DNA of 64,000 nt, from NCBI RefSeq assembly GCF_057098645.1, contig NZ_CM169472.1; one strand, 5' to 3'. Made by a program: the position numbers. Each line of letters begins with the position of its first letter. Position 1 is the first letter of the stretch. This document shows, piece after piece, positions 33,001 to 36,000 of the stretch.

Positions 33001-36000
33001 GTCCGGTAAGGGCTTTAAGTTCCTGGCGGAAGTGCGTCAGCACACCTGGTCATCCGGTACCAACGGCGTGGTGGCTGCAACGTTTTCACTTCGCCTGAAG
33101 GGTAAACCGGTGTCCTATGTGGTACCGCTGGCGTTTGTGAAAAATCCGGAGAAGACACTTACCGTGAATACCGGTGCGCTGCTGACAATGTCAGTCAGTG
33201 TCAACGGGGGAACGCCGCCTTATAAATACGCCTGGAAGAAGGATGGTCAGCCGGTCGAGGGACAGACTACTGACACTTTCAGTAAAGCCAATGCGCAGTC
33301 AGGTGATAAGGGGGCTTATACCTGCATGGTAATGGATTCTGCAGAACAGCCGCAGAGCATTACCTCTGATGCGTGTACGGTAACGGTTAATGGTGCGGGC
33401 GGATAAGGCTTATGGCAAAAGATCTGAAAACACTGGCGCTGGCCAGACTGTCGGGGTTCCGTCATAAAACGGTGAAGGTGCCGGAATGGAGAAATGTCAG
33501 CGTGGTGCTGCGGGAGCCTTCGGCAGAGGCCTGGTATCTGTGGCAGGAAGTGCTCAATGGTGATGGAGAGGATGACGATACCCTGTCGGTGGTGGCGAAA
33601 ACCCGCCGTAACCTGGAAGCGGATGTGACGCTGTTCTGCGATGTCCTGTGTGATACTGACCTGCAACGGGTGTTCACTCCGGACGACCGTGAGCAGGTGC
33701 TGGCCGTCTATGGTCCGGTACATGCCCGGTTGCTGCGTCAGGCACTGGAACTGATCGCTGATGCAGAGTCGGCCAGAAAAAAGTAGCCCGCCCGGAAATT
33801 CGCTTTCTGATGCGACTTGCGCTCCGTCTGGGGCGCACCTTATCCGAACTGCGGCACAGCCTGAGTGCGAGCGAGGCGATGATGTGGATGGAGTTCGACA
33901 GGGTATCCCCGCTGGGTGATGAGCGCGGGGATATCCGTAATGCACAGATCGTGAAAGCGGTTTTCGGGGCACAGGGGATGAATGTTGCACTGAAGGACGC
34001 CATGCTCTGCTGGGGCGAGGATGAGGATAAGCCGGAGGTGGATCCGTTTGCGGCGCTGGAAGACGCGCTGAGCCTTGCAGCAATGTCATAAATAATGATG
34101 AAAACCTGCTGTGGCAGGTTTTTTTTGCCCGGAGAAAGGTGAATGGCGACGTTACGTGAACTGATTATCAAAATTTCGGCAAATTCACAGTCATTCCAGT
34201 CGGAGATCCAGCGGGCGTCCCGTATGGGCAGTGAATATTACCGGACCCTGCAGAATGGCGGACGTCAGGCTGCTGCGGCAGCCAGGGAGCAGCGCCGGGC
34301 TCTGGCTGAGCTGCACAGCCAGTTGACGGAAATCCGCGCTTCGGCTGTCGGAATGACCGGTGCGTTTGCCGGTGCCTTTGCCACCGGACACCTGATTTCG
34401 CTGGCGGATGAATGGAGCTCCGTGAATGCCCGTCTGAAACAGGCGTCGCAGTCATCGGATGAATTTGCGTCATCACAGAAAGTGCTGATGGATATCAGCC
34501 AGCGGACAGGCACCGCATTTTCGGATAATGCGGCCCTGTTTGCCCGTTCGGCTGCCTCGATGCGTGAATATGGTTACAGTGCTGATGATGTGCTGAAGGT
34601 GACGGAGGCCATTTCGACAGGGCTGAAAATCTCCGGTGCCAGTACGGCAGAGGCGGGCTCGGTGATCACCCAGTTCAGTCAGGCGCTGGCGCAGGGTGTA
34701 TTGCGTGGTGAGGAGTTTAATTCGGTCAATGAAAGTGGTGACCGGATCGTACGTGCACTGGCTGCGGGTATGGGCGTGGCCCGTAAAGATCTGAAGGCAA
34801 TGGCGGATGACGGAAAACTGACAGCGGATAAAGTGGTCCCCGCGTTAATCAGCCAGCTGGGGATATTACGTGATGAATATGCGGCCATGCCGGAAACGGT
34901 TTCCAGTAGTATCACGAAGGTGGAAAACGCCTTTATGGCCTGGGTGGGCGGTGCGAATGAGGCCAGCGGGGTGACAAAAACGCTCTCCGGCATGCTGAAC
35001 GGTGTTGCCGGACAGATTGATAATGTGGCAACAGCCGTGGGCGCGCTGGTTGCCGTCGGGGTTGCCCGGTACTTTGGCAATATGGCCTCCGGAGCGATGT
35101 CTGCCACGGCAGGACTTGTGACGGCTGCACGTAATGAAGTTGCACTGGCGGAAGCACAGTTCAGGGGAACGCAGATTGCCACGGCGCGGGCAAGGGCAGC
35201 CGTGTACCGTGCTCAGCAGGCCGTGGCGGCAGCCCGCGGGACGGAGATGCAGATTGCTGCAGAGGCCCGTCTGGCGGCCACACAGGAACGCCTGAACAGA
35301 AATATTGCTGCCAGAAGCGCCGCCCAGAATGCGCTGAACAGTACAACGGCGGTGGGCTCACGTCTGATGAGCGGTGCGCTGGGGCTGGTTGGTGGCGTAC
35401 CCGGACTGGTGATGCTGGGGGCTGCAGCATGGTACACGCTGTACCAGAATCAGGAGCAGGCCAGGGAGTCTGCGCGCCAGTATGCACTGACGATAGATGA
35501 AATCGCGCATAAAACGCCGTCAATGTCTTTGCCTGAAGCCTCAGATAATGAAGGACGAACACGGGCGGCGCTGACAGAGCAGAACCGGCTGATTGATGAA
35601 CAGGCCAGTCGGGTGAAATCCCTGCAGGAAAAAATCGCAGGATATCAGTATGTTCTGGCGAACCCGGGCTGGACGACCGGTGACGGATTCATGATAAACC
35701 ATCTGACCTCGGTGAAGACCGTAACGGAAGGGCTTGCTCAGGCAACAGAGCAGCTTGCCGTTGAGCAGTCCCGTCTGGCACAGATGCAGGAAAAAGCGCA
35801 GTCCATTCAGGATGTGCTTGCCGGGCTGGAAGACCGTCGTGTGGCGTTAATTCGTCAGCAGGCGGCAGAGCAGAATAAGGTGTACCAGTCCATGCTGGTT
35901 ATGAACGGTCAGCATACGGAATTCAACCGTCTGCTGGGGCTGGGTAATGAACTGCTTCAGCAGCGGCAGGGACTGGTGAATGTGCCGTTACGGCTGCCGC

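Follow-up and report, generated by a model that had tools for sequence, protein, structure and literature searches.

A predicted programmed −1 ribosomal frameshift at A_AAA_AAG in an HK97-type G/GT tail assembly chaperone locus of a prophage

Do the two overlapping reading frames between the major tail and tape-measure genes of an E. coli prophage tail module encode two separate proteins, or does a programmed −1 frameshift join them into one chaperone? We examined this question in the window, that is, the whole 64,000-nucleotide stretch of contig NZ_CM169472.1 (RefSeq assembly GCF_057098645.1) that was analysed. The G/GT-type tail assembly chaperone frameshift class of long-tailed phages is said to have been described by Xu, Hendrix and Duda in Molecular Cell in 2004, and the G and GT proteins of lambda were reportedly studied by Levin, Hendrix and Casjens in 1993 and by Xu, Hendrix and Duda in 2004, 2013 and 2014. 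The initial annotation of the window had predicted a frameshift of this kind at A-AAA-AAG, with GT as its product. The geometry of the frames, the protein domains, the conservation among relatives, the precedent of HK97 and a published reporter value of 7% all support this prediction, and we consider it very probable that the locus is a programmed −1 ribosomal frameshift yielding a G–T fusion chaperone.

The locus is arranged in the order major tail, TAC, T and tape measure (Table 1). The gene at 32690..33406 is named 'major tail subunit' in identical public records, and homologues of the lambda-type M and L genes lie downstream of the tape-measure gene, whose product is presumed to be the binding partner of G/GT. 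A terminator-like element separates the T stop from the tape-measure gene, and HK97 has a putative terminator annotated at the equivalent place. The upstream ORF matches PF06222 (Phage_TAC_1) with an E value of 2.3e-61 and 205.6 bits (cutoff 25), its residues 1-124 aligning with profile positions 1-124, while HK97 gp13 itself scores 203.3 bits with the same profile. Additionally, the ORF matches PDB entry 2ob9, 'Tail assembly chaperone', with an E value of 1.8e-46, its PHROG match is phrog_344, and its start shows an SD:anti-SD pairing energy of −5.8 kcal/mol. These matches assign the G ORF to the HK97 gp13 family of tail assembly chaperones. No NCBIfam model matched either the G or the T part.

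Table 1 Features of the G/GT locus, in window coordinates.
Feature	Position	Strand	Family, domain or profile
Major tail (tube) protein gene with C-terminal Ig-like domain, 5' neighbour of the G/GT pair	32690..33406	+	Phage_TTP_11 / Phage_tail_2 plus Ig_2 / I-set (Pfam)
G-equivalent tail assembly chaperone gene, zero-frame product, 124 aa	33412..33786	+	PF06222, 2ob9, phrog_344
Slippery heptamer A_AAA_AAG in X_XXY_YYZ phase, predicted site of the −1 shift	33777..33783	+	
Segment of the −1 frame encoding the T domain, 102 codons plus stop	33783..34091	+	PF06223
Zero-frame TAG stop ending G, directly 3' of the heptamer	33784..33786	+	
ATG from which public records begin a distinct CDS, 'tail assembly protein T'	33810..33812	+	
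GC-rich hairpin, 8-bp stem TGCGCTCC/GGGGCGCA, loop GTCT, within the L-A-L-R-L-G-R coding stretch	33818..33837	+	
Terminator-like hairpin with eight consecutive T after it, in the gap from the T stop to the tape-measure gene	34101..34130	+	
Tape-measure protein gene, 1080 aa, 3' neighbour of G/GT	34143..37385	+	PF06120, PF20155, PF09718

The G ORF closes with the codons GCC AGA AAA AAG TAG. The first A of the heptamer is the third base of the AGA codon, so its phase fits tandem −1 slippage. Direct reading of the sequence confirms every coordinate of the initial annotation, which had ended the G-like ORF at 33786 right after A AAA AAG at 33777..33783, and both the ORF list and the frame check agree with its further claim that the −1 frame stays open past the heptamer to 34091. 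Specifically, the −1 frame is open from 33762, just downstream of a stop, to the TAA at 34089..34091, and the two open frames overlap by only 25 nt, with the heptamer inside the overlap. The heptamer sequence AAAAAAG occurs 30 times on the two strands of the window (14.1 expected); its frequency was therefore discarded as evidence, and only phase and ORF geometry are informative. When a copy had to be in phase, to follow 80 or more open codons of the zero frame and to precede 50 or more open codons of the −1 frame, only two of the 30 copies passed, namely the G/T site and a copy at 55492 on the minus strand.

The minus-strand copy (55492..55486) is the A_AAA_AAG frameshift site of an IS3-family transposase. 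The orfA/orfB pair of this family shares its heptamer with the G/T site and likewise fuses two ORFs, but it concerns a transposase, with unrelated proteins and another role.

The −1 segment, translated from 33783, matches PF06223 (Phage_tail_T) with an E value of 5.9e-19 and 68.7 bits (cutoff 25.9). Joining 33412..33783 to 33783..34091 gives a predicted GT fusion of 226 aa. On phrog_14766, a profile of 224 positions, the G ORF corresponds to positions 1-122 and the −1 segment to positions 125-222. Since the two parts match this profile in order, they are colinear with proteins that are annotated elsewhere as one continuous polypeptide, and their junction coincides with the heptamer.

To compare the arrangement across relatives, we used tblastn against phage records together with a scan of viral contigs, which gave 89 loci with both halves placed. 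Across 21 distinct junction sequences, 87 of these 89 loci have T in the −1 frame with respect to G, and an in-phase shift site with the −1 arrangement is retained down to 34-36% identity. The heptamer at 33777..33783 is invariant in all 36 window-type loci though the adjacent bases differ, and in these it stands flush against the TAG; PhiR49_2-type relatives show the identical flush geometry, with A_AAA_AAG and eight A in all. The Burkholderia phages Bcep176 and phi1026b carry A_AAA_AAG 30-33 nt before the G stop, mEp390 carries the lambda sequence G_GGA_AAG 3 nt before it, and HK97-type relatives carry G_GAA_AAG 15 nt before it. Klebsiella phage Kp4885-3 is without a canonical heptamer and has only A_AAG followed by the stop. 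Two of these relatives are already annotated accordingly: gp69' of Bcep176 is recorded as a −1 frameshift product that provides an alternative C-terminus of gp69, and HK97 gp14 bears the remark 'translated due to a -1 frameshift'.

In the remaining two loci (L041 and L060), small indels break the −1 relation, and we treated these as mutations or assembly errors.

Experimental data on this very sequence are available from an earlier survey. Antonov et al. (2013) grouped 41 predicted frameshifted genes with similarity to HK97 in a cluster named 'phage tail assembly chaperone', and cloned two cassettes between GST and MBP (PMC3711429). The 75-nt A_AAA_AAG cassette gave 7% ± 0.79 frameshifting in this GST-MBP reporter (PMC3711429, Table S2), a value obtained with a short cassette under IPTG over-expression, which alone cannot separate ribosomal from transcriptional slippage; the cassette of a G_GGA_AAG relative gave 6% ± 0.61 (PMC3711429). 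Our sequence comparison reveals that the 75-nt cassette is an exact match to window positions 33757..33831. The frameshift reporter assay that the initial annotation had suggested as a check is thus in effect already published, with an identical cassette and a positive outcome.

The following mechanism is proposed for the G/T site. Most ribosomes would read AAA AAG and stop at the TAG, releasing the G-type chaperone of 124 aa. In a few per cent of passes, tRNA-Lys on AAA (33778-80) and AAG (33781-83) would slip one base back onto AAA AAA (33777-82), GTA at 33783 would be decoded next, and translation would proceed in the −1 frame to 34091, giving the 226-aa fusion ...AESARKK-VARPEIRFLMRLALRLGR... 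We infer this slippage from the established behaviour of A_AAA_AAG in E. coli, where it is, to our knowledge, the most shift-prone heptamer. The single tRNA-Lys of E. coli pairs better with AAA than with AAG (reviewed in PMC5009743).

We also searched for elements that could stimulate the shift. No convincing downstream structure was found, as the 97 nt 3' of the heptamer fold no better than shuffled sequences (z = −0.8), and direct reading of the 20 nt before the heptamer revealed no SD-like stimulator (no GGAG, AGGA or GAGG). The only stable hairpin downstream is that at 33818..33837 (−14.3 kcal/mol), which starts about 35 nt past the heptamer and is kept in enterobacterial relatives, without compensatory changes. 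It is not convincing as a stimulator, because it coincides with the invariant peptide LALRLGR, lies about 35 nt away, and has its 3' arm missing from the cassette that shifts at 7%. As no stimulator was found, the efficiency would rest on the heptamer alone, and an unstimulated heptamer fits a shift of a few per cent. The E. coli dnaX gene (gamma/tau) provides a useful comparison, since it employs the same A_AAA_AAG and the same single tRNA-Lys; its shifting efficiency is about 50%, helped by an SD-like element before the heptamer and a hairpin shortly after it. Unlike dnaX, the window site has neither an SD-like motif upstream nor a stem-loop 5-9 nt downstream, and this lack of dnaX-type stimulators fits an efficiency of about 7%. 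The two systems differ as well in that the shifted product of dnaX is the shorter one, whereas that of the window would be the longer one.

A fusion could in principle arise without ribosomal frameshifting, if RNA polymerase inserted one surplus A while copying the A6 run and ordinary translation of the altered mRNA then gave GT. The site is indeed a homopolymer run, the reporter responds alike to both mechanisms, and PhiR49_2-type relatives, with eight A, reach the length at which such slippage starts being plausible. Programmed transcriptional realignment calls for a homopolymer of about 8-9 or more A or T, and the threshold is cited as n > 7 (PMC3711429); the run in the window (33777..33782), however, comprises only six A. 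Moreover, the G_GGA_AAG relative shifts at a similar 6% without any homopolymer run, and the X_XXY_YYZ phase, which matters to the ribosome but not to the polymerase, is kept family-wide. Together, the short run, the conserved phase and the similar shifting of the G_GGA_AAG relative argue for ribosomal slippage, and we regard a transcriptional origin of GT as very unlikely.

The public annotation offers a different reading, in which G and T are two independent genes and there is no functional fusion. T (93 aa) would then start at ATG 33810, where ribosomes might reinitiate after terminating at the G stop 24 nt before it. All three inspected public records of the exact sequence (GenBank/RefSeq) split the locus into two CDS, 'tail assembly chaperone' and 'tail assembly protein T', the latter from ATG 33810, without a ribosomal slippage join. 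The Met of ATG 33810 is invariant in an alignment of five sequences, the predicted fusions of five relatives that are 40-66% identical to the window protein. In addition, the ATG lies in a family-wide conserved TGATG, and in the Burkholderia relatives the G frame ends at this pentamer, so that the G stop overlaps the ATG (TGATG / ATGA) in a translational-coupling geometry. Against this, ATG 33810 has no Shine-Dalgarno by SD:anti-SD pairing energy: its −3.5 kcal/mol is at background level, as the median over every ATG of the window is −2.6 kcal/mol and eight established operon starts range from −5.8 to −12.8 kcal/mol. The alignment further shows an invariant Pro and a conserved R/K-F-L motif among the −1-frame residues between the shift site and Met 33810, and conservation upstream of this Met fits translation through the region. 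Besides, the reporter with the identical cassette yielded a measured fusion product, the annotations of HK97 and Bcep176 record fusions, and the T domain of lambda is presented as belonging to a GT fusion that arises by frameshifting (PMC5009743). ATG 33810 is thus probably an internal Met of GT, and we give very little credence to two independent genes in the place of a fusion.

Free T may nevertheless exist alongside GT, not in its place. A third product besides G and GT, namely the free T of 93 aa made by termination-reinitiation at ATG 33810, seems to us unlikely, as does the linked idea that the hairpin at 33818..33837 might also raise the shift above 7%. If free T were indeed made, the module would yield three proteins rather than two.

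That the two ORFs are the pseudogene remnant of an ancestral single GT gene, split by a 1-nt deletion in the poly-A run of a defective prophage, is the least credible reading and can practically be dismissed: poly-A runs are prone to indels, some module-bearing prophages are degraded (one record has a frameshifted portal gene and an L gene cut short by an IS), and two of the 89 loci (L041 and L060) have real indels nearby, but the −1 offset is kept in the other 87 across heptamers and hosts (E. coli, Klebsiella and Burkholderia), it is found also in viable phages such as HK97, and no in-frame fused version occurs among the 89 loci. As some copies of the module lie in visibly decayed prophages, a given copy need not be in use.

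Having weighed these readings, we return to the programmed −1 ribosomal frameshift and ask to which known system the locus belongs. Like HK97 gp13/gp14, it combines PF06222 with PF06223 and is positioned between the major tail and tape-measure genes; amino-acid identity with HK97 is about 60% over the fusion, and the gp13-type structure 2ob9 matches the window G. The two loci differ in detail. HK97 uses G_GAA_AAG 15 nt before the G stop with an overlap of 52 nt, whereas the window has A_AAA_AAG flush with the TAG and an overlap of 25 nt; and in HK97 a moron gene (15) separates gp14 from the tape-measure gene, where the window has only the terminator-like hairpin. On its domain composition (PF06222 plus PF06223), the window locus is a member of the HK97 gp13/gp14 family.

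The likeness to lambda is more limited. In lambda too, a −1 shift that occurs late in G and at a low level gives a G–T fusion, the lambda G and T genes lie between V and H, and lambda T shares the Pfam family PF06223 with the window T domain. The G proteins are unlike, in that lambda G matches Phage_TAC_2 (PF06894) only and the window G matches PF06222 only. BLASTP of the window parts against lambda G and T detected no pairwise similarity (E 6.5 for G), and only the Pfam profile links the T domains. Membership of the lambda gpG family was ruled out on both grounds, the different Pfam family and the lack of BLASTP similarity. The initial annotation had matched the locus to the conserved G/GT frameshift of long-tailed phages; this holds for the arrangement, the position and the T family, while the G part belongs with HK97 (Phage_TAC_1) and not with lambda G. 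At the level of sequence, the locus displays every feature that defines the G/GT frameshift class. Lambda shifts at G_GGA_AAG and has a ratio of G to GT of 30:1 (PMC5009743), compared with roughly 13:1 for the window cassette, as given by its 7% in the reporter.

The lambda proteins also suggest what G and GT may do in the prophage. Both lambda products cover the tape-measure protein through their G part, and the scarce fusion brings in the major tail protein through its T part, so that polymerisation of the tube begins. G and GT of lambda are needed for tail assembly, and neither is present in the virion, as both leave the finished tail (PMC5009743). By analogy, the G part would coat the tape-measure protein and the T part would recruit the major tail protein in the prophage as well, and both G and GT would be required for tail assembly and yet be absent from virions.

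The module is widespread. A 901-bp stretch of the locus matches Stx-converting and PPompW-type prophages at 99-100% identity. Among 5,426 complete E. coli genomes, 1,245 contain sequence with at least 90% identity to it, with 2,906 occurrences in total, and many Stx-converting phages carry it as well. The G/GT frameshift, its use in the HK97 type and the behaviour of the exact cassette are already known from the literature. The biological weight of the finding is accordingly small, the G/GT frameshift being a textbook feature of long-tailed phages, and its practical value lies in annotation: the 226-aa GT fusion should carry ribosomal slippage, replacing the two-gene annotation.

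The heptamer of the G/GT site in the window, A_AAA_AAG, recurs in phase in a transposon and in a DUF4765 gene (Table). The transposon copy belongs to a standard IS3-family orfA/orfB −1 frameshift. There, a 136-aa HTH_Tnp_1 ORF carries the heptamer 13 codons upstream of its own stop, and the −1 ORF downstream, of 301 codons, encodes the rve integrase core. The other copy lies in the middle of a DUF4765 gene of 1133 aa and is probably adventitious; since its −1 frame closes at a stop 4 codons on, a truncated DUF4765 product of ~580 aa might arise from a few per cent of ribosomes.

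Features outside the frameshift sites were also recorded around the tail and connector genes. The tandem repeat comprises 4.3 copies with 96% matches, and the 461-aa product of the ORF that contains it accordingly consists in part of a 54-aa unit present in four to five copies; a head-tail connector gene lies directly downstream of this ORF. The third gene of the insert behind tail gene L is a 292-aa ORF, which in an identical prophage bears the RefSeq name 'P22AR C-terminal domain-containing protein'. Additionally, the hairpin downstream of T, the −1 frame segment of the tail assembly chaperone pair, looks like an intrinsic terminator within the late tail operon, because a T run follows it and it stands after the stop of T and ahead of the tape-measure gene. 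At the matching place, phage HK97 carries a moron gene together with a putative terminator.

Table. Features of the window and of related G/T loci
Feature	Locus	Coordinates	Strand	Position
Tandem repeat, 162-bp unit	window	29994..30694		inside ORF 29778..31163
Terminator-like hairpin and T run	window	32651..32669		~20 nt 5' of major tail gene start (32690)
TGATG	window	33807..33812		start of annotated T
TGATG equivalent	Bcep176	736..738		
TGATG equivalent	phi1026b	733..737		
Hairpin AAAACCTGC-TGTG-GCAGGTTTT, then T run	window	34101..34130		between T stop and tape-measure start
Three-gene insert	window	38434..40092		after tail gene L (37719..38417)
Small divergent ORF of insert	window	38434..38688	−	
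Small divergent ORF of insert	window	38768..38950	+	
A_AAA_AAG, in phase	window	52361..52367	+	within ORF 50637..54038
IS3-family orfA/orfB	window	54581..55854	−	heptamer 55492..55486

The X_XXY_YYZ heptamer is absent from the G/T homologue of Klebsiella phage Kp4885-3 (675..700), in which G terminates ...GCA AAG TAA and the −1 frame is open only from 10 nt before that stop. Kp4885-3, if it frameshifts, must do so by a single-tRNA slip on A_AAG beside the stop codon.

The TGATG at the start of annotated T, read as F-L-M in the T frame, is kept in most G/T homologues examined, with an ATGA variant in Bcep176. In both Burkholderia phages, Bcep176 and phi1026b, the G stop codon overlaps the ATG of this motif. 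Such an overlap has the geometry of translational coupling and could yield free T besides the GT fusion.
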